Counted from the stretch's first letter, positions 268 through 20,000 are shown. The stretch: 20,000 nucleotides of DNA from an uncultured virus (IMG/VR IMGVR_UViG_3300042288_002474) (IMGVR_UViG_3300042288_002474); one strand, 5' to 3'. Numbers and translations are program-made. Notes: generated by a model from the letters alone, not told the origin.

Positions 268-342
268 TTTCCTAATCTTCTTTAACTTGTGGGATATTTT
301 ATATTATACTATACTATAGATATACCCAAATAAAAAGTTAAA

Positions 343-1748: not shown

Positions 1749-1750
1749 TT

Positions 1751-3985: not shown

Positions 3986-4020
3986 TACAATACTAAACAA
4001 TACTAAGGAGGTAATTAAAT

Positions 4021-5441: not shown

Positions 5442-5511
5442 TTATGAAATTCAACAACTACTATCTGATTTATTCAAAAAACCATAGCTCGGTTCGCGCA
5501 GGTATACAAAT

Positions 5512-6282
5512 ATGGCAATTTTAGAATTACCTCCCGTTAAATGGGAATTAACTAAGGTTAAAAAAATAGAAAGTAACGGAGACGGGTTAGGCGATGGATA
5601 TACCTTAACCGGAAGTGTCCCCTTCTCAGGCAGAGATACTTTTAACATTACGATACCGGGATTAACCACTGTAAAATTTAATGAGATTTGGGCGATAATT
5701 AAGGATTTTGCGGGCTACAAAACCTTTGGATGGCGAGAATTTTCTTGGCAAGATTACAAAACTTATGTTTTTGATGGTGAGCCGCAAGTTATTCCTCAAG
5801 GTTTGGATTGTTGGGAATTAAGGCTAATTTTAAAGGAAACGAGTCCGAGTCCGTCGGAGTTTATCGGAGTTATTCGTATGACTTGCGATAACGAATTCAC
5901 TCTTTTCCTAAATGGTGTGGAAGTAGGAAGTTGGGATAATTGGCCAGTTGCCAATGTTTTTTCTGTGGATTTTTTGTATGAGAATCAGATAGCTGTTGCT
6001 TGCCGTGATTTTGGGGTTATTTCTGGACTGTTGGGCGATATATCGGTTAACGGAAGTAGAATTAATACCGACTCTAGTTGGAAATATTCTCTTACAGAGC
6101 AAACTGGATGGAAAGAATTAGGTTTTAATGAAAGTTCGTGGACTAATGCCACGGAAGTATCGAATTACCAAGGGGGAAGGTGGCCTACTATAGCTAACAT
6201 GGATGGGACAACAGCTAAGTGGATATGGTCTTCAAGTGAATCAGACGACCTCGTTTATTTCAGAAAAAAATTAATATTTTAG
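5512..6282 (+). CDS. Distal tail protein (lambda gpM-like N-terminus) fused to a beta-sandwich carbohydrate-binding-like domain
   Basis: N-terminal ~110 aa with LGDGYT...GYKTFGW resembles gpM. C-terminal CDNEFTLFLNG...TDSSWK...F.ESSW...AKWIW...VYFRK is a jelly-roll/lectin-like pattern. Precedes the gpL-like gene. Confidence 0.62.
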   Translation: MAILELPPVKWELTKVKKIESNGDGLGDGYTLTGSVPFSGRDTFNITIPGLTTVKFNEIWAIIKDFAGYKTFGWREFSWQDYKTYVFDGEPQVIPQGLDCWELRLILKETSPSPSEFIGVIRMTCDNEFTLFLNGVEVGSWDNWPVANVFSVDFLYENQIAVACRDFGVISGLLGDISVNGSRINTDSSWKYSLTEQTGWKELGFNESSWTNATEVSNYQGGRWPTIANMDGTTAKWIWSSSESDDLVYFRKKLIF

Positions 6283-6296
6283 GGTTTAAATAATTT

Positions 6297-6935
6297 ATGA
6301 CTAATTTAGCAAAAGAATTACAATCTTTGGATGTAGAAAGTCCTATAGACTTAATTACAGTTACAGCAAACTCCCAGATTTTAAGATTTTGTAATTTATC
6401 TACGGTTAACTTCCAAAGCTTGACTTATCTAGCTAGACCTTGCGAAATATCTTGGCTGGGGCAATCAGGAGAGGGTACAGAATTAAGTAGTAAATTAAGT
6501 GTGTCGGATATTGATGGAGTAGTTGGAATATTAATTGACAATTACGAAGAAGATGTAATTGGTGCATCCGTTAATGTAAAAAGAACTTTAAAAATGTTTT
6601 TGGATGGGGAAAGTTCAGAAGATCCTACACAGTTTGTAGAGTTTAGCTTAAGAATAAACAGTTGGACTGGGCAATATGGCATAGGGTTTGAATTTAATTT
6701 AATCCCACTAGCTTCACTAGAGAGAAGAAAAATTCCTGGAAGAACTTACTTAAGGCGTTGTGGCTGGGAGTTTAGGGACTCTAACTGTGCAGCCACAACC
6801 GCGCTAAACTTTGATATCTTTGGCAATGCTACAACTTTAGTCAATAGCGTTTGCGGTAAAGATTTAGATAGTTGCGGAAGATACCAAAACTTATTAAGGT
6901 ATGGTGGTTTTCCAGGTATTGTTAGGAATAATTAA
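6297..6935 (+). CDS. Tail tip protein L (lambda gpL-like, 4-Cys Fe-S motif)
   Basis: VIGASVNVKRTLKMFLD, and C-terminal CGWEFRDSNC...CGKDLDSC...YGGFPG. Confidence 0.88.
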   Translation: MTNLAKELQSLDVESPIDLITVTANSQILRFCNLSTVNFQSLTYLARPCEISWLGQSGEGTELSSKLSVSDIDGVVGILIDNYEEDVIGASVNVKRTLKMFLDGESSEDPTQFVEFSLRINSWTGQYGIGFEFNLIPLASLERRKIPGRTYLRRCGWEFRDSNCAATTALNFDIFGNATTLVNSVCGKDLDSCGRYQNLLRYGGFPGIVRNN

Positions 6936-6941
6936 ATTTAT

Positions 6942-7754
6942 TTACTTAATTAATTCCTTAATTTCACTAGGAATAATAAATTGTGAGATTCCCCAATATT
7001 TAACAACTGCATTTACTACTATAGTAGCTGTAATGTTAATCATAATAATTATTATGATTATTGTTTTTTTACCTCCTGGGATGTTGTTAAAAAACCGAGC
7101 TAATGATGCTAGTTTTTGGATTTCGTCTCTATTTTCTGTGAATTTCTCCCACCCCTCATCGTCATTACTTTGGCGCACTTCTAATTTATTTAGTCTAGCC
7201 ATGAGGCTATCCTGGTCTATAAAAATATCCCTTTCTAATTGGGAATATTTAGCCAAGGCTTGCTTTGATAAAATTTCTACTTCTACCACGCTAGTGTTTT
7301 GGGGTTTTTCCCCACTTACGCTAGGATTTAGTGCGAGGATTAAAGCCTTAAGATCATTCCTCTCGTTACTTAAAGCTAATGCAGAAGGGAGGTAATTTAA
7401 TATATTGAAAAGCCTTTCTTCGTTAGCAATAACTTCCGTTATGTCTGTCGCTACGTTTAAGATTCCCCACTCAAATTTTTTACTTACCACCATTAAAACT
7501 TGGGTTTTCGGACACCTTTCTTGCCTATAAATCCATTTATCCTCAGTTCCGACGGGTGTGTTAATCAAAACCTTCATCCTTTGCGGTAGACCCTCGCATC
7601 CAACTTCGCAATCAATTGATTGTCCGTTAAGAGTTTTTTCCGAGGCAAATTTTTTTAATCCTGGGCTAACGGCAATATATCTTAAATCCAAGCTTATTGC
7701 AGAGACATATCCAGGCATCAATTCTATGATCTCCAAAAACTTAAAGTCATCCAT
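6942..7754 (-). CDS. PAS-domain protein with coiled coil and C-terminal transmembrane helix
   Basis: IIELMPGYVSAISLDLRYIAVS at the start and the DITE terminus are typical PAS boundaries; hydrophobic run IIIIIIMINITATIVVNAVV near the C-terminus. Confidence 0.65.
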   Translation of the reverse strand: MDDFKFLEIIELMPGYVSAISLDLRYIAVSPGLKKFASEKTLNGQSIDCEVGCEGLPQRMKVLINTPVGTEDKWIYRQERCPKTQVLMVVSKKFEWGILNVATDITEVIANEERLFNILNYLPSALALSNERNDLKALILALNPSVSGEKPQNTSVVEVEILSKQALAKYSQLERDIFIDQDSLMARLNKLEVRQSNDDEGWEKFTENRDEIQKLASLARFFNNIPGGKKTIIIIIIMINITATIVVNAVVKYWGISQFIIPSEIKELIK

Positions 7755-7786
7755 TAGAGTAAATGTAAATGAGTATAATTCTTTAC

Positions 7787-7795
7787 ATTATAGCA
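7787..7795 (-). promoter_or_regulatory. Extended -10 promoter (TGCTATAAT) for the PAS gene
   Basis: Perfect TGnTATAAT 33 nt upstream of ATG 7754. Confidence 0.6.
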
Positions 7796-7854
7796 AAGTA
7801 TTTTTACTTACTTAATTTACGTAATACAGCGCGCCGCAATGGTAGATTAAAAAA

Positions 7855-7937
7855 CGTCAAGAGAAATCCTTATTAAAAGAAAAATCCTTTGACACCATTC
7901 ACCTGACTCTGCGTTTTAAGATTTTTTTGCGATCGCG
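7855..7937 (+). repeat. Dispersed ~85-bp intergenic repeat, copy A, ending in a HIP1 site
   Basis: Shares blocks CGTCA, AAATCCTTAT, AAGAAAA, GACnCCATT, TGAC, TCTGCGTTTTAAGATTTTT and TTGCGATCGCG with 14417-14506. Confidence 0.8.
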
Positions 7938-8109
7938 TATCTGTTATGATGGGATGGCGCAGAGAAGAAGTCTTAGTTAATAGCATATTTCCTTAATTTA
8001 TTTGGAATAATAATATTTTTTGGCGCGGGTCTAGGTTTAGTTATTTTTCTCTTCATCCTACTTCTGCCACCATTATCAAATTTTAAATCTGTGGGACAAT
8101 ATAAATTTA

Positions 8110-8136
8110 CTCCCATAAATTAAAAAAATATGGGAG
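8110..8136 (-). terminator. Hairpin, probable terminator of the minus-strand small-ORF operon
   Basis: CTCCCATA/TATGGGAG inverted repeat just after the stop at 8145; weak U-tract. Confidence 0.45.
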
Positions 8137-8144
8137 CGGTAATT

Positions 8145-8330
8145 TTACCCTATTATAAAACTTTGTATTGGCGCAACCTCTGAAGAGGTTTTGTGTTCTG
8201 GAATCAATTTCCGCTCGATCTTGAAACCTTCTAATTCAAGAGTCGTGCAAATTCTTTCCATTACTTGTCGCCTGTCCATCCCAACAGGCGACTGTATCCA
8301 CAGAATCTCATCGCAGGGCATTCCGATCAC
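8145..8330 (-). CDS. Hypothetical protein (61 aa)
   Basis: GTG start overlaps the upstream stop (GTGA); part of a tightly packed operon. Confidence 0.5.
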   Translation of the reverse strand: MIGMPCDEILWIQSPVGMDRRQVMERICTTLELEGFKIERKLIPEHKTSSEVAPIQSFIIG

Positions 8331-8473
8331 CCCGAAAGCTTTTTCTCTAAGATCTTTCTGTACGATATTTTTAATTCTGCACTAGTAGAGAACTCCATCC
8401 AAAACATATTGGTATCTTCTGAAGCCCAGACTAAAACATCGTAACTTGGTTTTATCCCAGAAAAATCAAACAT
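8327..8473 (-). CDS. Hypothetical protein (48 aa, MFDFSGIKPSYDVLVW...KKLSG)
   Basis: Translated by hand; fills the gap between the 8480 and 8330 ORFs with GTGA coupling. Confidence 0.5.
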   Translation of the reverse strand: MFDFSGIKPSYDVLVWASEDTNMFWMEFSTSAELKISYRKILEKKLSG

Positions 8474-8479
8474 TTTTTA

Positions 8480-8764
8480 CTATCCCTTGTTTTTAATTAC
8501 ACGAAACTCGCCGCTGATGTGATTGTATTCAAGTTCTTCATCGTTTTCTAACGGATGTATTTCCTTAATTAATTCCGTTATTGTGTCCCAAGCTTTATCT
8601 TTTTCTTTTAATAGTTCAACGTGGGCGGAAACTGCGGCTTTAATTAAATCTTCTAACCCTATATTGCCTAGCATTAAAGAACTCTCAAAAACTCTTTTAG
8701 CACAGTCCTGATCCTTGCTAAAAATAAAAACTTTTTCGCCATTTGGTTTAATTTTAATTTCCAT
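8480..8764 (-). CDS. Hypothetical protein (94 aa)
   Basis: AGGA RBS, protein-like composition, operon context. Confidence 0.65.
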   Translation of the reverse strand: MEIKIKPNGEKVFIFSKDQDCAKRVFESSLMLGNIGLEDLIKAAVSAHVELLKEKDKAWDTITELIKEIHPLENDEELEYNHISGEFRVIKNKG

Positions 8765-8943
8765 TTTATTTTCCTTTGTTCTAGTTTTATTTGCTCAATC
8801 TCTTTTTCCGCGTCCAATATCTCTTCTAATTTACTTTTTAATAAGGAAGAAGCGGCATTGGTAGCTGTGTCAAACAACTCTTGACTTGTGGCTTTGTAGG
8901 CATCTACACTAACCCAATCATTGTAGACAAATGGGTACTCCAT
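8674..8943 (-). CDS. Hypothetical protein (89 aa, coiled-coil-like)
   Basis: ORF track; overlaps both neighbours, so boundaries are uncertain. Confidence 0.45.
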   Translation of the reverse strand: MEYPFVYNDWVSVDAYKATSQELFDTATNAASSLLKSKLEEILDAEKEIEQIKLEQRKIKWKLKLNQMAKKFLFLARIRTVLKEFLRVL

Positions 8944-9155
8944 GTTTCTAATTTGTACCCAAAAACGAGACTGTGTTCCGTTATTGTGGTAATGGACGCT
9001 GACGCAAACGAGTTTCCCCTGTATGAAATATCTTCCAGTTTGCGAATAGCCATTGACGAAAGGAATGATTGGTGATCACTCCACTCCCATCCGCTATCTA
9101 TCAACGCCGGACAGCGATCTTGATAAAACTCTAATTCCGACTGAGATGGTTGCAT
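8904..9155 (-). CDS. Hypothetical protein (likely start MQPSQSELE at 9155)
   Basis: ATG 4 nt downstream of the RuvC-like stop. Confidence 0.5.
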   Translation of the reverse strand: MQPSQSELEFYQDRCPALIDSGWEWSDHQSFLSSMAIRKLEDISYRGNSFASASITTITEHSLVFGYKLETWSTHLSTMIGLV

Positions 9156-9159
9156 TTTT

Positions 9160-9687
9160 TTATTTTCCTTTATTACTATTCCAACATAAATAAGCCAAAA
9201 GTGCCGACTCTTCCTCATCTGCTGTAGCAGAAGGATTAAATTTAAAGTAAGGAAAAAGCTTATTAGCTTTTCCCTTACTTAACTTTTTAAGAGCCTTATC
9301 TTTATCCTTACCGTTAAAAGTCCCTAAATTTTTTACAGATACGCCCATTAAATCTTTCCACTCAGTTGGCGGAGTTGAGTTAATTTCTCCAACTCCCAAC
9401 ACTTCTAATATTAAGACTAATCCTATGGCATTAGCACCAAAGTTAAATGCGCTATTTCTGCCCTGGTTATAAGAGTTAACCCTCTCAATAAGGGCGGTCA
9501 CTTCCGAGAAATCTTTAATTAATCCCCGAAGTTCTTCAGCAATAGTTCTAGCGTTAATTATTTTAAATCCCCACAAAACCCTAATATGATTCTTGAAAGA
9601 AATAACCTTAATTAATACTCCCTCGGAATTAATTATAGAAATTGCGCCGCTTTGTCCTGGGTCAATTCCTAGGAAATACTTGTACAT
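9160..9687 (-). CDS. ruvC: RuvC-like Holliday junction resolvase (phage type)
   Basis: YFLGIDPGQSGAISII, ALIERV...SAFNFG, PPTEWK and ADEEESALLA motifs. Confidence 0.85.
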   Translation of the reverse strand: MYKYFLGIDPGQSGAISIINSEGVLIKVISFKNHIRVLWGFKIINARTIAEELRGLIKDFSEVTALIERVNSYNQGRNSAFNFGANAIGLVLILEVLGVGEINSTPPTEWKDLMGVSVKNLGTFNGKDKDKALKKLSKGKANKLFPYFKFNPSATADEEESALLAYLCWNSNKGK

Positions 9688-10004
9688 TTTTTCTTTCTCC
9701 CGCGTTTCCTTACTTCTTTTTGTATTGCGCTTTGTACCGTTTGGCGTTTTCTTAGTGTCGTAATTTGGCTAAGGTCTTGTATTAGTGAAGATTGTGCGCT
9801 CAAGTTAAATGCCTTGTCTCTTAATTCCAAAGGAACTAAGTAATGGGGTACGACACAATCTTCAAAGTCATCCTTTTTGCTAAGTCCTAGTTTTTTTGCA
9901 AAATCATGCAATTCTTCCAGCGTGTAAGCTACCATCTGGCAGACTTCTCTATCCTTTTCTCCCAATCTTATTAATTTGTACGGAAGATTTAAAAACACTG
10001 TCAT
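9669..10004 (-). CDS. DUF4031-like protein
   Basis: CQMVAYTLEELHDFAKKLGL...FE...PHYLV...R.KA pattern. Confidence 0.65.
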   Translation of the reverse strand: MTVFLNLPYKLIRLGEKDREVCQMVAYTLEELHDFAKKLGLSKKDDFEDCVVPHYLVPLELRDKAFNLSAQSSLIQDLSQITTLRKRQTVQSAIQKEVRKRGRKKKCTSIS

Positions 10005-10032
10005 TTTTTACCCTATCCTTATTTAAGAAACC

Positions 10033-10066
10033 CCCTAACTTAATTTATTTTTAAATTAAGTTAGGG
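10033..10066. terminator. 15-bp perfect inverted repeat, probable terminator
   Basis: CCCTAACTTAATTTA-TTTT-TAAATTAAGTTAGGG directly after the stop at 10073. Confidence 0.6.
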
Positions 10067-10072
10067 CGTGAA

Positions 10073-10648
10073 TTATGCAGAAATTCTTATGGCGTACCGT
10101 TCAACTTCATCGTTGAAGCCTTGTCCCTGCATATCTTCAAAAAACTCGCAGATAATACGTTTTATGATGGGATTATTTACGGGATAGACTCCTCCATCAA
10201 AAGCGTTTAACCCTAATCCTAAGCCTATTGCGCCAAGCCTTCCTTGGTTGGGAGATAAGCCCAGTGTTTTTAATTTCCCCACTACATAAGCATTTAAACT
10301 ACTTCTGCTTATTTGTCCGGGATACCCCATCCTTATAGCTAAACTAGAAGCGTCTAATTTTTCTTTGCTAGGTCTGCCAAACGTTCCATTAAATAATGTA
10401 AAGTTGAAATAACTCTGGACTATGGACTGAGTTAATTTTTCTTCAGATGGATATCTGGCATCTTCCTTTTGAATGGGAAATAAATCTTTAGAAAGTGGGA
10501 CAAATCCCCACTTTTTAAAGGTTTCAAATACGTAAGTATTTAAAGCATTCTCGTTAGTAGTTTGGGAAGTGTTTAGCCCCAATTCGTCGGCCATTACTAT
10601 TGGACGCGACAGGTTGATCCCGTTGGACTTGATTGGTTTTGTGGTCAT
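10073..10648 (-). CDS. Hypothetical protein with two internal repeats, possibly DNA-binding
   Basis: Start moved to ATG 10648 because upstream starts lie inside the promoter. Repeats MADELG...ALNTYVFETFKKWG and LAIRMG...SLNAYVVGKLKTLG. Confidence 0.65.
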   Translation of the reverse strand: MTTKPIKSNGINLSRPIVMADELGLNTSQTTNENALNTYVFETFKKWGFVPLSKDLFPIQKEDARYPSEEKLTQSIVQSYFNFTLFNGTFGRPSKEKLDASSLAIRMGYPGQISRSSLNAYVVGKLKTLGLSPNQGRLGAIGLGLGLNAFDGGVYPVNNPIIKRIICEFFEDMQGQGFNDEVERYAIRISA

Positions 10649-10672
10649 AATCGCTAAGTTAATTTCTTTCCT

Positions 10673-10755
10673 CATCCTACTTGACAACGGTAGGGATGTC
10701 AAGTAGTTTTTGTAAATAAAAATAGTTGCCTAACGACGGTAGAGTGTGCTAGGGT
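10673..10755. promoter_or_regulatory. Divergent promoter/operator region between the 10648 gene and dnaE
   Basis: Minus strand TTGACA-17-TAGGAT; plus strand TTGCCT-18-(TGc)TAGGGT; inverted repeat CTACTTGACA-N10-TGTCAAGTAG at 10677-10706; two ACRACGGTA boxes. Confidence 0.7.
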
Positions 10756-10782
10756 AAATTTACACAAAACATTTTTAAAAAT

Positions 10783-13700
10783 ATGCAGCAGTACATATCT
10801 CTTCATAACCACACCCGCAGAGGCTCAAACTTTGATGGTGACATAGACGTTAAGAGATTAGTTGAGTTTAGTAAGGTACAGGGCTTACCCGCAGCTTGCA
10901 TTACCGATCATGGGAGTATGTCTGCGGCTTTTGAGCTATTTAAGGAGTGCCGAAAAGAGGGGATTAAGCACCTGATAGGCTGCGAGTTATACGTAATGGA
11001 AGAGGGTGGGGAAAAAACCGCCAACGGAAAAGACTATTACCACTTAACCGCTATTGCAATTAACCTAGAGGGTTACAAAAACTTATGCCGTTTAAGCACG
11101 ATAGCCAGTTTAGAGCAAGTACGCGGGAAGGCTAAAAAGCCTTGTGTTACTAACGCCCAAATTTTCTCCCATAATGCTGGGTTGGTAATATTAAGCGGAT
11201 GTATTAGTTCCGAACTGAACCAAAGCCTTAGCGCGGGAGATGAGCTTAGGGCTAAGAAGTGGATCATTAAATACCGCGCCGTCTTTAAGGACAGGCTTTA
11301 TCTAGAATTGCACTGCCACTACGGCATAAGGAAAAGTTGGCCAAGTCATACTCAAAAAATTGTCGAGTTAGGTAAAAAATTAAATGTTGCGAGAATCATT
11401 ACCAATGACGCGCACTTTTTAGGTAAGGAAGATTGGTTTAGTCAAACACTCGCGTTAAGTATAGGCATGAAGGGTAATGCCACTTTAGGATCGGAAAGGC
11501 TTAATAACTTCGAGTACACCGGTGAAGAGTATGTAAAAACGAGGGAAGAAATTTTCCAACACTTCTATGACAATTCTGGGTTATCGTCAGAGGAGATTAA
11601 CGTAGCCCTAGATAATACCCTAAAAATCGCGGATAAGTTTGAGGATTACAGCTTATTTAACGTTGTTAAGCCAATTAAATTTTCTCCCAATGCCGAGGCA
11701 ATATTTAAGCAAAAGTGCGCTGACGGGATGTTTAACCGTTACCCTCCCGAAGCTTTAAGTCCTGGGTTATGGGAACGACTGGACTATGAAATGAGAGTAA
11801 TCTCAGAAATGGGTTTTGCAGACTATTTTTTAATCGTGGAAGATTTTTGTAGTTTTGTGAGGGGAATTGGCCATAAAGTTGGGAAAGGCCGGGGTTCTGC
11901 GGCTGGGTCAATCGTGGCTTACTGTTTAAAAATTACTGATATTGACCCAATCAAACACGGGCTAATGTTCGAGCGATTCCTCAATCCTGGGCGAAAAGCA
12001 ATGCCCGACATTGATACAGATATGAACGGCGAAGGGAAGGATGCCGTAGTGGAACATTTAAGGGAAAGATGGGGTCGGTACAATGTTGCAGCCGTCGGTA
12101 CAGTCACTAAAAGTGCGGCTGGCAGTGCCTTAGCAGATTCCTTCAGGACACACAACTTAAGTTGGCGTAAGGCTACGGAAATATCCAAGAGGTATTTCAA
12201 AACTATTAGGGGCGTTCCTCCAAAAATTAGTAAATTATTAGTGGATGAGGGTGGGGAATTTTATAAATTTTTCCACTCCGATGAATTATCAGAAGAGGAA
12301 AGAATAGCCATAACTCATGCAGCACAATTTATAGAGGGACGGGAAAGACAAAGCGGAGTTCATGCGGGCGGAATTTGTATTTCGGAAGAATTACAGGATT
12401 ACGTTCCCCTAGTCTGGGACGGCGGCGAGGAAAAAATTACCACCGTTTACGATAAAGACGAACTTGAGGAAATGGGCGTTATTAAATTTGACGTTCTAGG
12501 ACTTACAGGTTTATCCCAAGAATTAGAAATAGAGGCATTACTTAAAGAAAGTAATTGTACAATTCCTGTAATTAATGAGTTAGGGAATTATCCCGAAGTT
12601 TACGCCATGTTAAAACAGGGGGATACTTTTGGCGTATTCCAGATGGAGGGTAAAGTTCCTTCAAATTTATTGCGAGAAATAGGGGCAAATAACTTTGAAG
12701 ACTTATCGGCGGTAAACGCTCTAAATCGTCCAGGATGTTTAGACAGTGGCAGCGATAGGGTTTATGTCAGAAACAGGGTTTTGGGTACTCCAAAGGTTCA
12801 CCCCATCGTAGATGAAGTGCTTAAAGATACTTTTGGGATTATGCTTTACCAAGAGGAAATTATGCTTATGGCTCAAAAACTTTCAGGGTATTCTTTAGCT
12901 GAAGCTGATGATTTACGGAAAATAATTGGGAAGAAAAAAATTAAGGATATGCCCGCGCAAGAGGAAAAATTTGTGGGGGGCGCAATTACTCATAGCGGGG
13001 TAAGTGAAGAATTAGCATTAGCTTTATGGTCAGAAGTTAAAGCTTCGGCTGAGTACAGTTTTAATAAATCCCACACTTATGCTTATGGGTATCAAGCCTT
13101 AATTAGTGCATTTTATAAGGTTTATGCACCGAGGGAATTTTGGGCAGCCGGAATTACCGTGTCCTCAAAATCATTTGAGAAGTCAGCAGAGTGGATTAAA
13201 AATACAAAACGCCACTTTAATATAATCCTCCCTAAAATGTGGGCAGAATTAAGGGTTAAATGTTTCCTAACTCCAGAGGGAATTAATTTAGGTTTAGCTA
13301 ATATTAAGGGACTGGGCGTAAGCGTTGCGGAGGAAATAGTTAAGAATTACCCTTATAGTGGCGTTGTGGATTTTTGCCTAAGAAGTGGTGGTGATAAAGG
13401 TGTAGTAATTAGCTTAAATAATTTAGGGTTTTTTGGGGATGAAATTTTTCCAGAAGAAAGTTTAGTGGTTTTATTTAAAGCCTTAAGTTATTTTAAGGGA
13501 ACACTAAAACGTCGGGCATTAAAAAACGGGGGAGAGGGGGAAGTAACTTTAAACGTAGAAGAATTTAAAACTTACCTTGTGAGTAAGGATTTTAATTTTC
13601 CCCAACCTACTTTAAGGACTACGGAAAAAATAGTAGAAGTGGAGAAGGATCTGATCGGGACGGTCGTAAGCGTCAACCCGTTCCAAAACTTAAATTTAAA

Positions 13701-14325
13701 CTTACCCCAAAGTGAATGGGTAACGGGAATTGTCACGAATTACAAGCCCTTTACGACAAGAAATGGCGACTTAATGGTATTTCTCATGGTTAATGATGAA
13801 AATGGGGAAAGTCATGACATTACTGTGTTTAACGAAGAATTAACCAAGTTTAATACCCTAATCCAAACTTCAGTATTGGAATATAAACCTTTAGCTTTTA
13901 ACGTAACTAAGGGTGAATATAACGGTAAGGTCAGTAATACTTGCAAAGCAGTCCTAAGCTTAAATGAAGTTAAAAAGTGCTTAGATGAATTAAATTTAAT
14001 AGTAGCCTTTGAGGGGGAATATGGCGATCGCATAGCGTCAGGCAAAATCATCCAAAATAAAGTTCTCACAAACAAACAGACGGGAGGGACTGACCATTTC
14101 CTTAGAATTATGCAAAAAACAGGGTGTGTTTTGGAGGTATTTTTGCGTGACGGCACTCAGGGGAAAGAATTTTTAACATCATGTTTGACGGCGGGAATAA
14201 CCGTAAATTTAAGTGACGGTGATAGGCCAAAAATCATAGAAATGACAATTTTAGGATATGAGTTCGCGCCACGTCAGGTAAATATGTGGGAATATCCCCA
14301 AACTGCGCCGGCAGGTTTTTGGTAA
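10783..14325 (+). CDS. dnaE: DNA polymerase III alpha subunit (family C), contiguous and intein-free
   Basis: PHP domain (LHNHT, TDHG, GCE, HLT, SGC, TNDAH), GRGSAAGS, FERFLNPGR..MPDIDTD, HAGG, KFDVLGL, GVFQME, YQEE, YSFNKSH, HhH IKGLG and a C-terminal OB fold. Confidence 0.97.
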   Translation: MQQYISLHNHTRRGSNFDGDIDVKRLVEFSKVQGLPAACITDHGSMSAAFELFKECRKEGIKHLIGCELYVMEEGGEKTANGKDYYHLTAIAINLEGYKNLCRLSTIASLEQVRGKAKKPCVTNAQIFSHNAGLVILSGCISSELNQSLSAGDELRAKKWIIKYRAVFKDRLYLELHCHYGIRKSWPSHTQKIVELGKKLNVARIITNDAHFLGKEDWFSQTLALSIGMKGNATLGSERLNNFEYTGEEYVKTREEIFQHFYDNSGLSSEEINVALDNTLKIADKFEDYSLFNVVKPIKFSPNAEAIFKQKCADGMFNRYPPEALSPGLWERLDYEMRVISEMGFADYFLIVEDFCSFVRGIGHKVGKGRGSAAGSIVAYCLKITDIDPIKHGLMFERFLNPGRKAMPDIDTDMNGEGKDAVVEHLRERWGRYNVAAVGTVTKSAAGSALADSFRTHNLSWRKATEISKRYFKTIRGVPPKISKLLVDEGGEFYKFFHSDELSEEERIAITHAAQFIEGRERQSGVHAGGICISEELQDYVPLVWDGGEEKITTVYDKDELEEMGVIKFDVLGLTGLSQELEIEALLKESNCTIPVINELGNYPEVYAMLKQGDTFGVFQMEGKVPSNLLREIGANNFEDLSAVNALNRPGCLDSGSDRVYVRNRVLGTPKVHPIVDEVLKDTFGIMLYQEEIMLMAQKLSGYSLAEADDLRKIIGKKKIKDMPAQEEKFVGGAITHSGVSEELALALWSEVKASAEYSFNKSHTYAYGYQALISAFYKVYAPREFWAAGITVSSKSFEKSAEWIKNTKRHFNIILPKMWAELRVKCFLTPEGINLGLANIKGLGVSVAEEIVKNYPYSGVVDFCLRSGGDKGVVISLNNLGFFGDEIFPEESLVVLFKALSYFKGTLKRRALKNGGEGEVTLNVEEFKTYLVSKDFNFPQPTLRTTEKIVEVEKDLIGTVVSVNPFQNLNLNLPQSEWVTGIVTNYKPFTTRNGDLMVFLMVNDENGESHDITVFNEELTKFNTLIQTSVLEYKPLAFNVTKGEYNGKVSNTCKAVLSLNEVKKCLDELNLIVAFEGEYGDRIASGKIIQNKVLTNKQTGGTDHFLRIMQKTGCVLEVFLRDGTQGKEFLTSCLTAGITVNLSDGDRPKIIEMTILGYEFAPRQVNMWEYPQTAPAGFW

Positions 14326-14351
14326 ACTAAAAGCGTCAGGCAAATTACACT

Positions 14352-14392
14352 AAATCCTCCAAATCTTTATACAGTAAGGTTTTGGAGGATTT
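14352..14392 (+). terminator. Inverted repeat after dnaE, probable terminator
   Basis: AAATCCTCCAAA/TTTGGAGGATTT 12-bp arms. Confidence 0.55.
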
Positions 14393-14416
14393 TAAAATAT
14401 GTAAAGTTATATGAAG

Positions 14417-14506
14417 CGTCAGTCAAAATCCTTATAGTAAAGAAAACTGTCTGACCCCATTGCATGACGCTCTGCGTTTTAAGATTTTTACCATTTTGCG
14501 ATCGCG
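14417..14506 (+). repeat. Dispersed ~90-bp intergenic repeat, copy B, ending in a HIP1 site
   Basis: Aligns block by block with 7855-7937. Confidence 0.8.
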
Positions 14507-14718
14507 CTCAAATATAAAAACGGGCAAAAGCCTCTAAAATGCCGATACCCATTACCCATTGAAACAGATAATTATGGAGATTGTCCATCTGGTAAGCTGA
14601 TCCGCAACATGGAGAATAGCATTTAAGCAAAACTAAAGCCGCAATTCAAATGTCGGATCATCTACAGATTTTCTGCTATAGTCTATAGTTTAGATATATC
14701 TAGTGGAGTTAATCCCAA

Positions 14719-14931
14719 ATGTCCCGACCGAGTGAAGATAGAGTTAAGATCCAGTGTCGTCTGCCCAGAGACAAGAAAGCACACTGGGACGAGTTGCTGA
14801 TAAATGGCGGCTTTTTCTTTCGGTATAAAGCCGCCATTTATCCTATGTATGGGGAATTTCTAGAAGCACTGCTAGATGGTGATCCTAGGGCGTTATTGGT
14901 TATCCTGAAAATATTTTCTAAAACCACTTGA
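14719..14931 (+). CDS. Small putative DNA-binding regulator (ribbon-helix-helix-like)
   Basis: GGAG RBS; N-terminal alternating strand RVKIQCRLP followed by helices (...YGEFLEALLDG); upstream TGCTATAGT extended -10. Confidence 0.5.
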   Translation: MSRPSEDRVKIQCRLPRDKKAHWDELLINGGFFFRYKAAIYPMYGEFLEALLDGDPRALLVILKIFSKTT

Positions 14932-14956
14932 CAAATTGGAATAAGTCTACTAGACT
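14928..14956 (+). promoter_or_regulatory. Sigma70-type promoter of the accessory cassette
   Basis: TTGACA-17 nt-TAGACT; palindrome AGTCTA-C-TAGACT (14944-14956) overlaps the -10. Confidence 0.7.
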
Positions 14957-14993
14957 CTAAATATAGAGTGAAACAAATTACAGGACATTAATC

Positions 14994-15857
14994 ATGAGAT
15001 TACTAAACAAAACGGTTCAAAGCTTTGAGTCTGCTAACAATCTAATTACTCAATTAAATAAAGCGATTAATACAAGTTACATCCCCACTGGGGATGACAT
15101 AAAAGAGGTTGTGCATAACTTCACTAAAATTCAGTTAGCTAGGACATTTAATCCTAGCTGTTTTAGTGCGGCGCATTTAACCCTGACATTTAACGAGAAA
15201 GAAATTCTCACTAGTTACTTGTCTACATCATTAACTAGTGTTGATATTTTCTATCGGTTTAACAACAACATGGAAGTAGATTCAATTGAAATCAATGTTT
15301 CAATACCTGATGATAGATCCCAACCTGGAAGGACTCATTATGAGTCCTTAACACGTGAGTTCTATAGGAACAACTTCATAGCAGTTGATTGGACTGCTAA
15401 ATCAGTTGAATTAGTTGTACCGATTGACCTAGTGTCATTAAATGATCACTGGTCAGTTACGGATAATATTCCGAACTGGGTAGTAGAAGAGATTAGCAAT
15501 TACAATGCTGTATGGAATGGATATGCCGAGTTACTGGAACTTGGTTATGTTCCAGTTAATAATCTAATAGGATTTAAATTAGTATTTCACAATCCCAATA
15601 ATTCTATCCAATACATTGTAGTTATCGAAAAACTACATGAAATAGATAATAACTACTATTTACTTGAAGATGTAAATAGTAAGCTACGAAATGAAGGTGT
15701 TAGTTACTTGAGATTGATCGAAATGATTAAATCTGCTGTTGATAAACAATCACGCAAGGTTGAAGAAGTTATTGACTACGAATACGATGAAAATGTATAT
15801 GATGACGGACACGAAAGAGTTAGTAATAACTTACCCGAAGGCTTTGCTGGCTGTTGA
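14994..15857 (+). CDS. Hypothetical protein (287 aa)
   Basis: Long ORF with AGGA RBS downstream of the promoter; acidic C-terminus; no recognised motif. Confidence 0.75.
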   Translation: MRLLNKTVQSFESANNLITQLNKAINTSYIPTGDDIKEVVHNFTKIQLARTFNPSCFSAAHLTLTFNEKEILTSYLSTSLTSVDIFYRFNNNMEVDSIEINVSIPDDRSQPGRTHYESLTREFYRNNFIAVDWTAKSVELVVPIDLVSLNDHWSVTDNIPNWVVEEISNYNAVWNGYAELLELGYVPVNNLIGFKLVFHNPNNSIQYIVVIEKLHEIDNNYYLLEDVNSKLRNEGVSYLRLIEMIKSAVDKQSRKVEEVIDYEYDENVYDDGHERVSNNLPEGFAGC

Positions 15858-15874
15858 TTTAGACGAAGCATAAA

Positions 15875-15941
15875 GTCGAAACAGGGTTAGCAACCCTGTC
15901 TGCATGAGGTTAGTGACCTATGCACTGATGAGACAAACTAG
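15875..15941 (+). ncRNA. Type II hammerhead ribozyme (predicted cleavage 3' of C15900, GUC site)
   Basis: GTC-GAAA; stem III ACAGGGTT-AGC-AACCCTGT; C; stem I TGCAT(g)AGGT-TAGTG-ACCTATGCA; core CTGATGA; stem II GAC/GTC; loop I TAGT can pair with the 3' tail ACTA (pseudoknot). Confidence 0.9.
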
Positions 15942-16075
15942 GGGGAAGCTTCAAAGAAGTTAGAACCTACCAGTGGCAACACTGCCACCAAGACAATAAA
16001 AATTCCCTACTTTAAGGGCAAGTATTCTGATTGGGCAGAATATGTAGATTCTCTCCCATTTGATAAGTAGTTCCT

Positions 16076-16101
16076 TGACCTAAGCAAGTCATTAAACTGC
16101 T
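16076..16101 (+). ncRNA. Compact H-type pseudoknot motif
   Basis: P1 TGAC/GTCA, loop CTAAGCAA, linker TTAAAC, P2 AGCA/TGCT. Confidence 0.4.
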
Positions 16102-16126
16102 GTTGTAAATAGTTAGCAGGGAAACA

Positions 16127-16222
16127 ATGCAAACAACAATGACAGTGGGTGAATACACTTATCACCTATCCGAATTAGAAAGCCGTAGGGTAAAACCGGG
16201 CTGGCAACCTTTTACCGTTTAA
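16127..16222 (+). CDS. Small ORF (31 aa, MQTTMTVGEYTYHLSELESRRVKPGWQPFTV)
   Basis: AGGGA RBS-like sequence upstream; stop lies 8 nt before the next ATG. Confidence 0.35.
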   Translation: MQTTMTVGEYTYHLSELESRRVKPGWQPFTV

Positions 16223-16230
16223 CCCACCTG

Positions 16231-16602
16231 ATGACTAACGGTATTGGTATTTTATGGGGCGTTATCCAGTCGCCCCTAATAATTTCCCCACTCTACCCCG
16301 TGGGGAGTCCCCACCATACAACACTCCAGTTTGGGGTTGGCCGCCAAGACTGGAAAGAGTGGGAGGGTTTAGAGTTCCAAGCCACAACTTTATATGAAGC
16401 TTGGAACGGCAAAATACAAGCTGTAGCTGTCAAACTTCCTGATCATATTCCCTGCGCTAACAAATATCCTCACATATCTGTTAGTTGGTGTAAAGGCATA
16501 AAGCCCTATGAATCGAACCTGATGCTGTCATCTAAGTTTGACTACAGACTGTTCAAGCAATCTGTAAAGATGAAAATAGAGTTTTTAGAGTGGATAGAAT
16601 AA
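16231..16602 (+). CDS. 2H phosphoesterase superfamily protein
   Basis: Two HxT/S motifs (H29-T-T-L and P-H81-I-S-V), each followed by a hydrophobic residue, in a 123-aa protein. Confidence 0.72.
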   Translation: MTNGIGILWGVIQSPLIISPLYPVGSPHHTTLQFGVGRQDWKEWEGLEFQATTLYEAWNGKIQAVAVKLPDHIPCANKYPHISVSWCKGIKPYESNLMLSSKFDYRLFKQSVKMKIEFLEWIE

Positions 16603-16627
16603 AGCGTCTACAAGGAATAAAATACGC

Positions 16628-17410
16628 ATGAAAAACATTTTTGTTGAAGATTTAGGAAATGGTGTGATATTGGAAATGGCTGCAATCCCCGGTGGCACTT
16701 TTATCATGGGTTCACCACCAGAGGAATTGGGACACAGGGACAATGAAAGTCCCCAGCATCAAGTCACAGTCCAACCCTTCTTTATGGGTAAATACCAAGT
16801 CACTCAAGCACAATGGCGATTTGTAGCTCAGTTAGCCCAAGTGAACCGTGAGTTAGAGCAAGACCCATCTAACTTTAAAGGTGATAATCGCCCTGTGGAA
16901 CAAGTATCTTGGTATGATGCGGTGGAGTTTTGCGATCGCCTCTCAAATCATACTAAAGAACAATATCGCCTCCCCAGTGAAGCTGAATGGGAATATACTT
17001 GTCGAGCCGGAACTACTACCCCGTTTTATTGTGGGGAAACAATTTCTACAGATTTAGCTAATTATGATGGTAACTACACCTATGGTGGTGGTGCAAAAGG
17101 AGTTTATCGAAAAGAAACAACAGAAGTAGGCAGGTTTGGAGTAGCTAATAACTTTGGATTATACGATATGCACGGCAACGTCTGGGAATGGTGTCAAGAC
17201 GATTGGCATAATGACTATGAAGGTGCGCCAATAGATGGAAGCGCATGGCTAAATAATGAAGAGGATAATAACGGTAAGCTGCTGCGCGGTGGTTCGTGGT
17301 ACAACTCTCCTGTGCATTGCCGTTCTGCTTATCGCGGCAGCAACCATCTCGACCACTACCACTACGATATTGGTTTTCGGGTTGTGTGTAGTGGTGCGGC
17401 GAGGACTTGA
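16628..17410 (+). CDS. FGE-sulfatase (SUMF1/CLec-fold) domain protein, cyanobacterial DGR-target type
   Basis: IPGGTFIMGS, ESPQHQV, YQVTQAQW, RPVEQVSWYDA, YRLPSEAEWEY.CRAGT, NNFGLYDMHGNVWEWC, LLRGGSW...R...IGFRVV. Confidence 0.93.
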   Translation: MKNIFVEDLGNGVILEMAAIPGGTFIMGSPPEELGHRDNESPQHQVTVQPFFMGKYQVTQAQWRFVAQLAQVNRELEQDPSNFKGDNRPVEQVSWYDAVEFCDRLSNHTKEQYRLPSEAEWEYTCRAGTTTPFYCGETISTDLANYDGNYTYGGGAKGVYRKETTEVGRFGVANNFGLYDMHGNVWEWCQDDWHNDYEGAPIDGSAWLNNEEDNNGKLLRGGSWYNSPVHCRSAYRGSNHLDHYHYDIGFRVVCSGAART

Positions 17411-17471
17411 TAGCACTATGCACTTTTGCCCTCTTGCTCTTTTCTTGTCTTATCCCTCTCGCATAGCGAGA
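17279..17471 (+). other. DGR variable-region-like segment with downstream hairpin
   Basis: Run of NNC/NNT codons between GGSW and IGFRVV; hairpin TCTCGC-ATA-GCGAGA at 17457-17471. No template repeat seen in the window. Confidence 0.55.
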
Positions 17472-17594
17472 AAATTTTTGTCAGAATCAGGATATCTACC
17501 GATTAAAGGATGAAACTGATATTCAACTATTAAACCGGAAATTAGCGAAGCTTATGAAGTTGGAATGACAAGGATTTTAAAAAGTATCACCCCA

Positions 17595-17619
17595 GCCCGT
17601 CAGAAATGGCGGGTTTTTT
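17595..17619 (+). terminator. Rho-independent terminator closing the accessory cassette
   Basis: GCCCGTCA-GAAA-TGGCGGGT followed by a T-tract. Confidence 0.88.
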
Positions 17620-17737
17620 ATTGTTTATTTGCCCAGGACACCTAACAAGGTTAAAAAAATGTCCTTGCATACTACCATACCTCTTTTTTTACAATTACAT
17701 TAAGTATATGCTTTTAAAATAATTTTACTAAAACTAC

Positions 17738-17766
17738 TTGACGACGGTATAGGGATAGAGTATGAT
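17738..17766 (+). promoter_or_regulatory. Sigma70-type promoter with ACGACGGTA box
   Basis: TTGACG-17 nt-TATGAT; the ORF-track ATG at 17762 lies within this -10. Confidence 0.75.
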
Positions 17767-17797
17767 ATTTTATATAAGCTCAAGAAAATTAAAGATT

Positions 17798-18913
17798 ATG
17801 TCCTCCAACGAACTACTCCAACAATTAGCACAAGAATTAGCACAGATCTTAGGCGGCAGCAATAGTAATGGATTGGGCTTTTGCCCAATCCCAGAAAACC
17901 AAAACACCGTAAAGTTTATCTTTCCTGGATATACTAGACAACAGCCTCCATATATGCACTTTTTGGGAGAAAAAGATCAGCGTACCGGAAACTCTCCTCA
18001 TATCCCAGTTCCAGGTGACGCACTTAAGGGTCGATTACAATTCATTAATTTAATTGACGTTGTTTCTAACGGTGAAGATAAGCAAAAGCTTTGCTTCTGG
18101 ATTGATTGCGGATCAATAACCTACGTCCTTTGGTTGGGGTGGGCAGACGCTTATGGTAAGCTAAACAACGCTAGTGAAAGTTTTTTAAAAGCCTTAGCTT
18201 CATTAACGCCAGATGAATTGTTAGAACCCTTTACGTTTACATTATCTCGCTTAATTGACAAACCCTCCTACGATCCAAGTAAAGGGAATCCTGCCACCGC
18301 AGGAAAAGTATTACTAGTTGACGTTTGGAAAAACTCCGGCGAGAGAGTTTTTTCTGAACAGGGTCACATGGATGCTAATGCTGCGGCTGGCGTGATCGTA
18401 AGAATTAATCAACATCTAACCGGACAAGCGGTTCTTACGCCCCGTCAACCAAAATCAAAAACTGTCATTCAAGAACCAATCCCAGTAGCTCAACCCCAGC
18501 CAACTCAACAGCAGTGGGGACAACAAACCCAAGCTCAAGCTTGGGGAACTGCACCCATTCCTCAAAACTTACCTGCCCCAGTTCCTCAACCCCAACCAAC
18601 TCAATATCAACAACCCCAAAACTTACCCCAACCTATTCCTCAGACCCCTCCTGTAGTTGGTGGCTTAACATCAGAAATGGCAGCACAATTCCAAGCCCAA
18701 CAAGCCCAACAAACCCAAGCTGCACCAATTCCTACCCCACCACCCGCACCTATTCCACAAATGACTTCCGATCAAATGGCACAGTATCAGCAATTTTTAG
18801 CTATGCAAGCCCAACAAAGTCTTACGCCGCCTCCACAGTGGGGAAGTGTCGCACCTACCCCGCCACCTACCCCACCACAAAACGGTAATGGTGGTGGTAA
18901 GATAAATTGGTAA
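17798..18913 (+). CDS. Hypothetical protein: globular N-domain plus long Gln/Pro-rich tail
   Basis: Start moved to MSSNELLQ (17798); low-complexity PQPQPTQ/QAQQ tail ending GGGKINW. Confidence 0.8.
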   Translation: MSSNELLQQLAQELAQILGGSNSNGLGFCPIPENQNTVKFIFPGYTRQQPPYMHFLGEKDQRTGNSPHIPVPGDALKGRLQFINLIDVVSNGEDKQKLCFWIDCGSITYVLWLGWADAYGKLNNASESFLKALASLTPDELLEPFTFTLSRLIDKPSYDPSKGNPATAGKVLLVDVWKNSGERVFSEQGHMDANAAAGVIVRINQHLTGQAVLTPRQPKSKTVIQEPIPVAQPQPTQQQWGQQTQAQAWGTAPIPQNLPAPVPQPQPTQYQQPQNLPQPIPQTPPVVGGLTSEMAAQFQAQQAQQTQAAPIPTPPPAPIPQMTSDQMAQYQQFLAMQAQQSLTPPPQWGSVAPTPPPTPPQNGNGGGKINW

Positions 18914-19037: not shown

Positions 19038-20000
19038 TTATGGGTTAGTTATTTCTAAAAGCCTACTCTTAATTACGGTGGTATGGCATAACTTAGGGGA
19101 ACAGTGGCATAGAAGCCTTATTTTTTGTCCGCTATCTAACATCCCTGCCAAATTAACTATATTCATCATTATTTCTGCAACGGTAGGATATTTATACTTC
19201 TCTGCAATTTTTAGCCCAGGGATAACTAAAGCTGGATCTAGTTTTTTGTCCCTTAAATCTTCTCGTTTGTAGGCTTGAAAATTCATGTCTAGCCACGCCT
19301 CAAAAGCTTTTACGCACATTTCCCTATCTTCCTCTTTTTCTAGGACATAGGGATTGCCTAAAGCGCTACTCCTGTCACAAATTACATCCATATACCCCAA
19401 CTTTGGGGAAAGGTTTTTTAAGTTGCCAATTATTATTTTCTCTTCCTCTTCCTTAATTATTTTTTTAGTGGGATAAAGATTAATCCAGGGGATATTTTTT
19501 TTCTTGCAATACTCAATACAATTTGCCGTTCCGCCCTCTTTGTTTCCGTCCCAAAACGCCAACATTAAATTAACCCTATCCGCCATCCATCTGTTACGAC
19601 GTTGCATCTTCCAACTTTCATAACCGCTTTTACAAACAATGTGGGATGAGGTAAGGGGATTGTTTAAAATATCCCAATACTCATTTTGGGAGGATTTTGC
19701 CCAGCGCGATTCTTGACCTTTAAATGGGATGGCAGCAACTAATCCTATTCCGAGATGTAGAGATGCTTTGGCTATGGCAAAATCCCAACCTATAGCCATG
19801 CCCGAAATTACAGAGGTGGGGTTAATTTCATCCAAAATATTAGTGGAGATATTTAATAAATTATCCTCAACTTCTTTAGTATACCCGCCTACTTTTTCCC
19901 CTAACCTATGACCCGTTGCGCCAACTACAAAAAGTCTTTCAGGAGTTTGGCTTTTTATAAACTCTACATAAGCCTTTAAATTACTTTTTGTTATTTCCAT
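19038..20000 (-). CDS. SLOG (YpsA/DUF1273-like) domain fused to a DUF4326-like domain; start may lie beyond the window
   Basis: TGHR, ISGMAIGWD, AAIPFKGQESRW, MQRRNRWMAD, AFWDG...GGTANC (SLOG); DRSSALGNPY...LLCHCSPKLCHTTVIK (DUF4326-like). Confidence 0.8.
   Translation of the reverse strand: MEITKSNLKAYVEFIKSQTPERLFVVGATGHRLGEKVGGYTKEVEDNLLNISTNILDEINPTSVISGMAIGWDFAIAKASLHLGIGLVAAIPFKGQESRWAKSSQNEYWDILNNPLTSSHIVCKSGYESWKMQRRNRWMADRVNLMLAFWDGNKEGGTANCIEYCKKKNIPWINLYPTKKIIKEEEEKIIIGNLKNLSPKLGYMDVICDRSSALGNPYVLEKEEDREMCVKAFEAWLDMNFQAYKREDLRDKKLDPALVIPGLKIAEKYKYPTVAEIMMNIVNLAGMLDSGQKIRLLCHCSPKLCHTTVIKSRLLEITNP

Follow-up and report, generated by a model that had tools for sequence, protein, structure and literature searches.

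A variable gene slot in a probable freshwater cyanophage combines a predicted hammerhead ribozyme, a CNPase-like 2H phosphoesterase and a CLec gene that varies at template adenines

Do the genes and RNA elements at positions 14,719 to 17,619 of the uncultured virus IMGVR_UViG_3300042288_002474 form one functional unit, and what might each contribute? The window, the whole 20,000-nucleotide stretch analysed, contains there a 70-residue open reading frame (ORF), a promoter, a 287-residue ORF, a hammerhead ribozyme, a 403-nt spacer, a 2H phosphoesterase gene and a gene for a C-type lectin (CLec) protein of the type diversified by diversity-generating retroelements (DGRs), followed by a terminator (Table 1). 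A preliminary description had read this as a self-contained accessory operon inserted as a block. We find instead a slot in which the borders, promoter and terminator, are fixed and the small genes between them are interchangeable and separated by repeated RNA elements. Between sister phages, all differences in the variable region (VR) of the CLec gene fall on template adenines.

The slot is delimited by comparison with sister phages, which retain dnaE, the 70-residue ORF, the promoter and the terminator and exchange the genes in between. Loci L003 and L004 track the window at 99% and 98% identity through dnaE, the 70-residue ORF and the promoter, where identity stops just behind the promoter at 14988 and 14977, respectively; both then carry unrelated genes before rejoining the window at the 2H gene. 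The CLec gene is kept in L004, only its last ~130 bases are retained in L003, and in L293 and L294 a CLec gene immediately follows this promoter, in loci that have neither a type I ribozyme match nor a 2H gene. The contents of the unit therefore differ between sister phages, and it is not self-contained. The window's own cassette recurs in L133–L135 and, judged by shared sequence words, in many lake sequencing runs. The slot is probably expressed early.

Most of the architecture proposed in the preliminary description is nevertheless present. Four ORFs lie on the same strand across 14719–17410. The site and spacing of the TTGACA-17-TAGACT promoter are kept in six sister loci (L003, L004, L133, L137, L293 and L294); promoter-type matches by themselves are not above chance (39 found, 53.4 expected). 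A palindrome read from the sequence covers the −10 box (14944–14956); only a core with 4-bp arms survives in L004, L137, L293 and L294, and the palindrome is missing from the related promoters of L208–L210. The terminator hairpin with its U-run stands behind the unit and, by eye, also closes the arrays of L209 and of CL131, a cultured Aphanizomenon phage. The small ribbon–helix–helix (RHH)-like gene placed in front is a conserved ORF (76–94% identity in L003, L004, L137, L293 and L294), but because it ends inside the −35 box it is upstream of the promoter and off its transcript. Pfam and PHROG searches with its product give no match, and its nearest named Atlas clusters (DUF3950, RHH_1 and MetJ, all RHH-type, 0.88–0.89) make the RHH identity only a lead. 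It is a candidate autoregulator that could plausibly act through the palindrome.

The window is phage DNA, with lambda-like tail genes, a resolvase and dnaE (Pfam, PHROG). Its nearest record, G001 (the contig of L003; 72.7 kb, 65% complete), is 99–100% identical over most of 1–14988 and served as a whole-record stand-in for the window's phage. Because the CLec gene and its tail match Dolichospermum/Aphanizomenon-like genomes, and because CL131 shares the ribozyme, the 2H gene and the terminator, the siphophage that carries the array most likely infects Dolichospermum/Aphanizomenon-type cyanobacteria. The array layout is not an assembly error, since 18 DNA runs from lake and freshwater metagenomes contain 78–97% of the window's words and a single contig of run X1 spans 14600–16488 with zero differences. 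These runs were compared as contigs, which drop rare variants. A contig from the RNA run X20 is identical across 16371–16661 at a depth of 3.6, which is no proof of transcription, and the ribozyme lies outside its cover. The GC content at third codon positions does not separate slot genes (0.30–0.46) from core genes (0.29–0.38).

The CLec gene encodes a protein consisting only of a CLec/formylglycine-generating enzyme (FGE) domain (PF03781, 193 bits; T. denticola TvpA, E = 8e-23) with 70–83% DNA identity to Nostocales genes. Its VR bears out the preliminary description of the gene as DGR-type. That description missed the adenine rewriting of this gene with no reverse transcriptase (RT) nearby. 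Compared with the template repeat (TR) of Dolichospermum, a related host genome, the window VR is changed at 16 of 35 adenines versus 4 of 94 other bases (p = 9e-8). Compared with sister locus L134 it shows 17 differences, 17/17 at TR adenines, between flanks that are identical for 276 bases upstream and 128 bases downstream. The Dolichospermum genome holds a complete DGR, comprising targets, RT, TR and an ORF that, from its motif and position, we take to be Avd-like. The VR end, which resembles an initiation of mutagenic homing (IMH) site, and the hairpin downstream are common to the window and the host targets and are absent in other phage CLec families; the hairpin (17457–17471) is a candidate DGR cruciform or terminator.

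Other sister pairs, selected for at least 95% upstream identity and scored by codon position 1/2/3, show a comparable pattern in some cases. VR changes number 9/10/1 between L288 and L322, with 0/300 upstream differences, and 6/5/0 between L307 and L309, with 1/300 upstream differences and only part of the VR affected. The VR is unchanged in two sister pairs, and three pairs within the L307 family differ at only 1–3 positions.

How the VR came to vary is less certain. That the host DGR produced the variation by retrohoming onto phage DNA in trans is, on the sequence comparisons, an even chance. Several observations count against this route. The VRs of L290 and L292 differ by whole family (13/11/14), which fits recombination. 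The dominant VR in runs X1 (depth 135/144) and X3 (46/49) is that of the window, and one VR is shared by 4/5 isolates of the Microcystis phage Fukuivirus. The X1 and X3 contigs and the Fukuivirus isolates thus give no sign of fast ongoing mutagenesis, and VR variation would be episodic rather than continuous. Run X6 yielded no VR piece among the pieces listed.

The alternative is that the variants were not made on phage DNA at all, and that finished VRs were repeatedly taken from already diversified host targets by recombination between the conserved VR ends. Host genomes contain many such targets, conservation is highest at the ends of the VR, the VR end is all that remains of the CLec gene in L003, and VRs are clonal within lake populations; the family swap between L290 and L292 points the same way. 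Recombination does not readily account for the window and L134, which share the non-adenine bases of the VR together with the identical flanks, whereas the compared host targets lose flank identity, nor for the partial VR difference between L307 and L309. Such pick-up is possible, but we would not call it probable.

Remote and trans-acting DGR targets are known in cyanobacterial and other genomes and have been proposed to be sensors of MoxR/vWA conflict systems (PMC7517822, PMC10907252 and PMC12691664, as far as the relevant passages go). The window gene resembles the remote CLec targets of cyanobacterial (clade 5E) DGRs described there in its CLec/FGE domain, in a 3′ VR that matches the TR outside adenines and in its CLec-only architecture, and differs in being carried by a phage. 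Like the Bordetella BPP-1 system, as outlined in PMC7517822, it is a phage gene with an adenine-mutated CLec tip. BPP-1 has its own RT and diversifies a tail fibre, whereas the window gene, for which no RT was found, lies at a distance from the tail genes and encodes a domain that stands alone. By its own account, in the part concerned with its scope, the survey in PMC8144416 would not detect remote targets. Our literature search found no phage-borne DGR target without an RT, although supplements could hold such cases; within the literature searched, such a target is new.

Four further CLec loci deserve mention. In the cultured Microcystis phages LMM01 (gp062) and MaMV-DC (ORF63L), both Fukuivirus, a CLec-only gene (L169/L170, 3650–3755) is annotated as ‘kinase’ or hypothetical, and the differences between LMM01 and four other Fukuivirus isolates are densest in the VR. 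L136 carries two tandem CLec genes (5392–6999) with VRs from different template families in one array. In L151, nine tRNA genes lie a few kilobases from a CLec VR with a host-like tail (735–1664); as this locus may be host DNA, it was left out of the phage evidence.

The hammerhead recognized in the preliminary description is of type II and has a complete core (CUGANGA, GAAA, A15.1–U16.1 and H17), an open stem II, and stems II, III and I of 3, 8 and 6 pairs. Rfam RF02276 matches at 15874–15942 with 34.1 bits (E = 0.0012), below the 37-bit gathering cut-off, which lowers the formal Rfam assignment and leaves the structural reading untouched. A three-stem descriptor also detects it, with 0 matches in shuffles of 3.0 Mb and 3.2 Mb. 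Loop I (15910–15914) can pair with the 3′ tail (15937–15941) through five possible pairs seen by eye; both sides change in the L208/L209 variants. Copies in CL131 and L209 are near-identical, and the L208/L209 variants alter stem pairs together. Self-cleavage would very probably split the transcript at 15900, freeing the 287-residue cistron with a 2′,3′-cyclic phosphate end from a downstream piece with a 5′-OH.

Sister phages carry a type I hammerhead family in place of type II. Because Rfam (in L001–L005, at E ≤ 0.5) and a first strict descriptor missed type I copies, we built our own type I covariance model, which its training sequences match by construction; the type II copy of L208 was seen by eye only. 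In the type I alignment 96% of cells are paired and double changes occur in 10 of 17 pairs, which was reached by 0–1 of 500 shuffles, a comparison to be read with the relatedness of the copies in mind. The type I ribozymes sit just behind stop codons, with at most four per array.

Hammerheads between phage genes are already known, and prophage hammerheads cluster around single genes or short blocks of changing identity (Perreault et al. 2011, PMC3088659). The passages of that paper on which we draw also describe type II ribozymes with a pseudoknot between loop I and the 3′ tail, and propose the processing of long transcripts. The present arrays differ in belonging to Nostocales phages, in the CNPase-like 2H gene behind them and in a coremin-like pseudoknot in their spacers, neither of which is mentioned in those passages. 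The words ‘ribozyme’ and ‘hammerhead’ have 0 occurrences in the main text of the CL131 genome paper (PMC6293099).

The 2H assignment of the downstream gene is secure. Its product exceeds the PF08302 cut-off (32 bits versus 23) and has two motifs, H29-x-T31 and H81-x-S83, of which H29, T31 and H81, along with H28, are invariant in 42 sequences. An AlphaFold2 (AF2) model with a predicted local distance difference test (pLDDT) score of 93.8 confirms the 2H fold. The best structural match is CNPase (VIA Z 11.3, root-mean-square deviation (rmsd) 2.6, 121 aligned), and a PDB sequence search gave nothing useful. The protein thus shares motifs, fold and Pfam family with CNPase and the cyclic phosphodiesterase (CPD) domain of fungal tRNA ligases, but it is a stand-alone phage protein with no kinase or ligase adjacent in the window.

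Full-length 2H genes were found behind hammerheads in every case. An alignment search identified 14 viral 2H loci, comprising 11 of full length, 2 gene-start scraps and 1 distant relative, and hammerheads, at most four per array, lie upstream in 11/11 of the full-length loci. They also lie upstream of 2H in CL131, L133, L134, L136 and L137. Whole-record counts show type I copies clustered in front of 2H (4/4 in G315, 3/5 in G316, 2/4 in G317 and 1/1 in G001); G318 has two type II copies upstream and no type I, and G009 is without a type I copy. CL131 has three predicted hammerheads, 2/3 of them within 1.4 kb upstream of its 2H gene. The 2H gene sits near the 3′ end of the arrays, and downstream of it most phages have a homologue of CL131 gp124 instead of CLec. 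The converse does not hold. The hammerhead pattern gave 54 matches and 21 distinct contigs at 72 bits or more. A full 2H gene accompanies the ribozyme in 10 of these loci, is lacking in 8 with full flanks and is represented by a scrap in 1; the other 2 run into a contig end. In short, 2H implies ribozymes, whereas ribozymes can occur without it, and the count is inflated by common descent.

These data suggest a role in which the 2H enzyme would open the cyclic ends left by the hammerheads, giving 2′-phosphates as CNPase does, and these ends would stop host RtcB from re-joining or circularizing the pieces. The role is coherent, though unproven, because opening of this type by CNP lowers RtcB ligation (PMC10630183, in the part that treats this reaction) and because the hosts carry RtcB, which is encoded in 88/101 host-family genomes. 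By analogy with CNP we hold it as a tentative proposal. The ribozyme-processed accessory transcript and the hammerhead–2H link of the preliminary description gain from the 11/11 loci, the CNPase-like fold and the presence of RtcB, as predictions. Among the papers listed by our literature search, none joined phage hammerheads with 2H proteins, with the proviso that supplements could hold such cases; within that literature the CNPase-like partner of hammerhead arrays is new.

Other findings speak against this proposal. The distant 2H relative in L217 (38%) lacks a hammerhead. Five of the eight hammerhead contigs without 2H were searched whole, giving two C-terminal 2H scraps beside ribozymes and nothing in the other three; the complete record G319 has only a C-terminal 2H scrap, and G322 (94% complete) has no 2H. 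The 11 loci are not 11 independent events, because the homologues are 64–98% identical and travel in shared modules. In the window itself 2H translation may be weak, because the gene that in relatives overlaps the start of 2H has been deleted. Finally, cleavage, the 2H substrate and co-transcription are predictions.

The same protein could instead be an anti-defence nuclease, either Acb1-like or acting on 2′,3′-cyclic nucleotide monophosphates or cyclic ADP-ribose phosphate, encoded in the early array because anti-defence genes gather there, with the hammerheads merely tuning cistron levels. Acb1, which acts against the cyclic-oligonucleotide-based antiphage signalling system (CBASS; PDB 7t27), is likewise a small phage 2H protein from an accessory region and ranks second in VIA, with viral 2′–5′ phosphodiesterases close behind. 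A search of 301 host-order genomes, run without a positive control, did not detect the family, which therefore looks phage-specific. Some genomes with hammerheads have lost it, a frequent fate of accessory anti-defence genes. Against this, the Acb1 match is far poorer than that of CNPase (Z 6.6, rmsd 3.9, 13% identity), Pfam gives the tRNA-ligase CPD family, and the window protein is ribozyme-associated, with all 11 full-length loci lying behind hammerheads. We consider this explanation unlikely; of the two substrates named in the preliminary description, RNA ends agree with the 2′,3′-cyclic phosphodiesterase fold and immune signals are less favoured.

It is less likely still that the hammerheads are selfish or neutral repeats that serve mainly as recombination joints for cassette exchange, with 2H hitch-hiking by descent. 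A long identical repeat of gene end plus ribozyme occurs twice in L004, the deletion in the window runs through a ribozyme, stray scraps of the 2H gene start are present in L208, L209, L215 and L216, and some arrays lack 2H. Yet the catalytic cores are preserved and the stems maintained through compensatory changes, and ribozymes of either type, I or II, precede 2H in phages differing in size and gene content. In our preferred reading, that of processing ribozymes with a 2H partner, the repeated ribozyme and gene-start sequences would double as joints that shuffle and delete cassettes. The preliminary description had named a random moron array as the opposing case; the array is indeed shuffled, but hammerhead punctuation and 2H placement are non-random. 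Separately, unrelated phages (L275/L277/L281; L259/L269; L251; L243/L250/L254/L258/L263/L266) carry arrays of 3–7 type I hammerheads (42–68 bits) with no 2H in the locus.

The spacer between ribozyme and 2H gene, described earlier as a structured RNA, folds as a whole only marginally better than shuffles (z −1.8), and the structure resides in a 27-nt pseudoknot. A degenerate search finds its pattern in at least 123 viral stretches, and most of these copies look intergenic by eye; copies are present in L003, L136 and L274 too. An exact search with the window pseudoknot and its flanks gave 0 viral matches, and Rfam left the motif unmatched in the 20 loci tested. Among 121 distinct copies the search pattern fixes most positions and leaves three testable pairs, of which one covaries strongly (p = 4e-12), one is strongly supported by shuffling (78/121 versus a mean of 32 and a maximum of 56) and one is not significant (p = 0.09). 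An extension of the second stem is unsupported (13/121). A literature search with the motif sequence found no paper. A type III antitoxin mimic was dropped as an identity for this element, which is a single copy with no repeat array. L027 has three copies of the pseudoknot between small genes (1501, 1816 and 2133), and in L010, L021, L032 and L033 it lies beside tRNA genes or hammerheads.

The element resembles coremin, the class C exoribonuclease-resistant RNA (xrRNA-C) of plant RNA viruses, as presented in the sections of PMC10520033 that describe its structure: both have a short GAC/GUC-type stem followed by a UUAAACU-like spacer, a proposed pseudoknot and an intergenic position. The window element differs in the opposite order of its stem arms, in an 8-nt loop with 5–6 Watson–Crick pairs to the 3′ tail and in occurring in DNA phages. 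Because the 8-nt loop departs from the hairpin 1 loop consensus YGAD or YGNNAD, despite the shared short stem and spacer, we call it coremin-like and not a coremin member. The word ‘phage’ has 0 occurrences in the main text of that paper. As a candidate equivalent, in phages, of exoribonuclease-resistant RNAs, the pseudoknot could perhaps shield the downstream piece of the transcript against 5′-to-3′ decay, a suggestion to which we attach limited confidence.

The remainder of the spacer is deletion debris, namely a gene collapsed to 31 codons and half of a deleted type I hammerhead. The deletion at 16221–16234 took the 3′ part of that ribozyme and a gene of ~120–134 residues; its junction lies on one X1 contig at a depth of 143.6 and is identical in L133–L135. 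By sequence comparison, the window array evidently descends by deletion from an array of the L136/L003 type and is joined to a ribozyme module of the CL131 type.

Two broader alternatives can now be judged. The phage might have its own DGR, with RT, Avd and TR elsewhere in its genome, so that the CLec gene would be an ordinary remote target. RT was found in 0/41 CLec loci (39 viral loci with CLec relatives and two Fukuivirus loci, with fetched flanks of at most 5 kb) and in 0/13 whole phage records, 11/13 of which carry the CLec gene or its end; L136 and L137 were outside the whole-record searches. Most of the RT-searched records are fragments, only 2/13 are at least 90% complete and the nearest is 65% complete, so a phage-encoded RT or TR could lie elsewhere, which tells against a host source. 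Even so, G004 (72.7 kb), G007, G008 and G009 (111.6 kb, 92% complete) have no RT and a single VR/TR-like match per record, G324–G328 have no RT (in a search without a positive control), and no cyanophage is among the best 30 of 171 phage RT matches. We regard a phage-encoded DGR as very unlikely. The coherent, co-evolved six-part anti-defence operon of the preliminary description is extremely improbable, for, although the cassette recurs in L133–L135 and lake runs and L209 combines a 287-residue homologue, the same hammerhead and 2H, co-occurrence counts largely refute it (type I model in 2/39 and 2H in 1/39 CLec loci), sister phages replace or delete each part, and the spacer is partly debris.

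On balance, then, we favour a composite explanation: a variable slot, a ribozyme-cut transcript, a 2H enzyme and a CLec target derived from a host DGR. Apart from the ribozyme part, the last cassette of the slot is a CLec-only gene taken up from a DGR locus of the host. A bolder version, which we think rather improbable, is that freshwater cyanophages borrow the host DGR. A CLec-only sensor copy with targeting signals but without RT or template would be rewritten on phage DNA during infection as a diversifying decoy against MoxR/vWA-type immunity, and would be expressed from a ribozyme-cut early array with a dedicated phage cyclic phosphodiesterase countering RtcB. The decoy role is purely inferential.

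The role of phage self-cleaving ribozymes has been open since their description, and the cultured pair of CL131, with its three predicted hammerheads and an enzyme candidate, and Aphanizomenon makes the question testable. Mutagenesis of a phage gene by a host DGR in trans would, if true, be a new route of virus evolution, invisible to RT-anchored surveys, and would be relevant to the proposal that the targets of cyanobacterial DGRs act as immune sensors.

The gene at the front of the slot, for the 287-residue protein, is a mosaic. Its middle part is swapped in L133/L134, its last ~10 codons run into the hammerhead module, and the C-terminal extension that results has its DNA match in CL131, upstream of the hammerhead there; a few database homologues share this read-through tail. 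The window type and L209 both have this ribozyme behind the gene; the two closest viral relatives of the gene (L001 and L002) are in records without a hammerhead. None of 53 homologues has a Pfam domain or an informative name, Pfam and PHROG matches are sub-threshold only, Atlas is blank, and an AF2 model (pLDDT 52) has no Foldseek match at E ≤ 0.001. From its position the product is most likely an early host-interaction protein. In L002 and L288 (same contig, G003) a 287-residue homologue lies ~8 kb from a CLec gene on the same strand, with no hammerhead match.

Table 1 Features of the slot and its borders, in window coordinates
Feature	Position	Strand	Basis or remark
RHH-like ORF, 70 aa	14719..14931	+	Conserved backbone gene upstream of the slot promoter
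Sigma70-type promoter TTGACA-17-TAGACT, left slot border	14928..14956	+	Motif and conservation
287-aa protein, function unassigned, mosaic between strains	14994..15857	+	Homologues and strain comparison
Type II hammerhead	15875..15941	+	Predicted cleavage 15900^15901 after GUC; RF02276 and descriptor
41-codon open frame without ATG/GTG/TTG start, possible gene remnant	15942..16064	+	Reading frame
H-type pseudoknot, 27 nt, coremin (xrRNA-C)-like	16076..16102	+	Widespread between phage genes
31-codon collapsed remnant	16127..16222	+	Start and end of a ~106-aa gene of L003/L136
5′ half of type I hammerhead fused to 2H start codon	16221..16234	+	Deletion at 5-nt microhomology
2H phosphoesterase, stand-alone, 123 aa, CNPase/fungal Trl1-CPD-like	16231..16602	+	PF08302, motifs, fold
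CLec/FGE-only protein, 260 aa, host-derived DGR target	16628..17410	+	PF03781, TvpA, Nostocales genes
DGR VR and IMH-like end	17276..17404	+	TR and sister comparison
Host-derived tail: pyrimidine tract, hairpin 17457–17471, Dolichospermum dispersed repeat (~17478–17514)	17411..17514	+	Sequence and host match
Intrinsic terminator and U-run, right slot border	17594..17623 (hairpin 17594–17615)	+	Same hairpin in L003, CL131 and L209

ARAGORN finds no tRNA in the window or in G001, and no integrase is present among 37 G001 proteins scanned (37/40 ORFs called outside the first 20 kb). On the minus strand, window positions 1–30 contain a T-arm sequence like a tRNA or transfer-messenger RNA 3′ end (weak Rfam match, E 0.1), also in G001, which may be attachment-site-like or a degenerate tRNA. 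Short intergenic repeats at 14325–14472 and 7864–7937 recur in G001 (28532 and 57291) and among the window's relatives. A tail-associated segment at 4763–5370, a swapped lectin-like region, has no G001 match and lies between two blocks of 99–100% identity. Beyond the slot, a 383-residue protein with a Gln/Pro-rich tail (17762–18913) is ~70% identical to its L003 counterpart versus 99% for its neighbours, and a YspA/SLOG domain fused to DUF4326 is encoded on the minus strand at 19038–20000. Elsewhere in G001 there are an IS200/IS605 element with a TnpB-like ORF (L157, 2855–4619) and a ribonucleotide reductase gene with an intein/LAGLIDADG insert (L158, 14313–17693).

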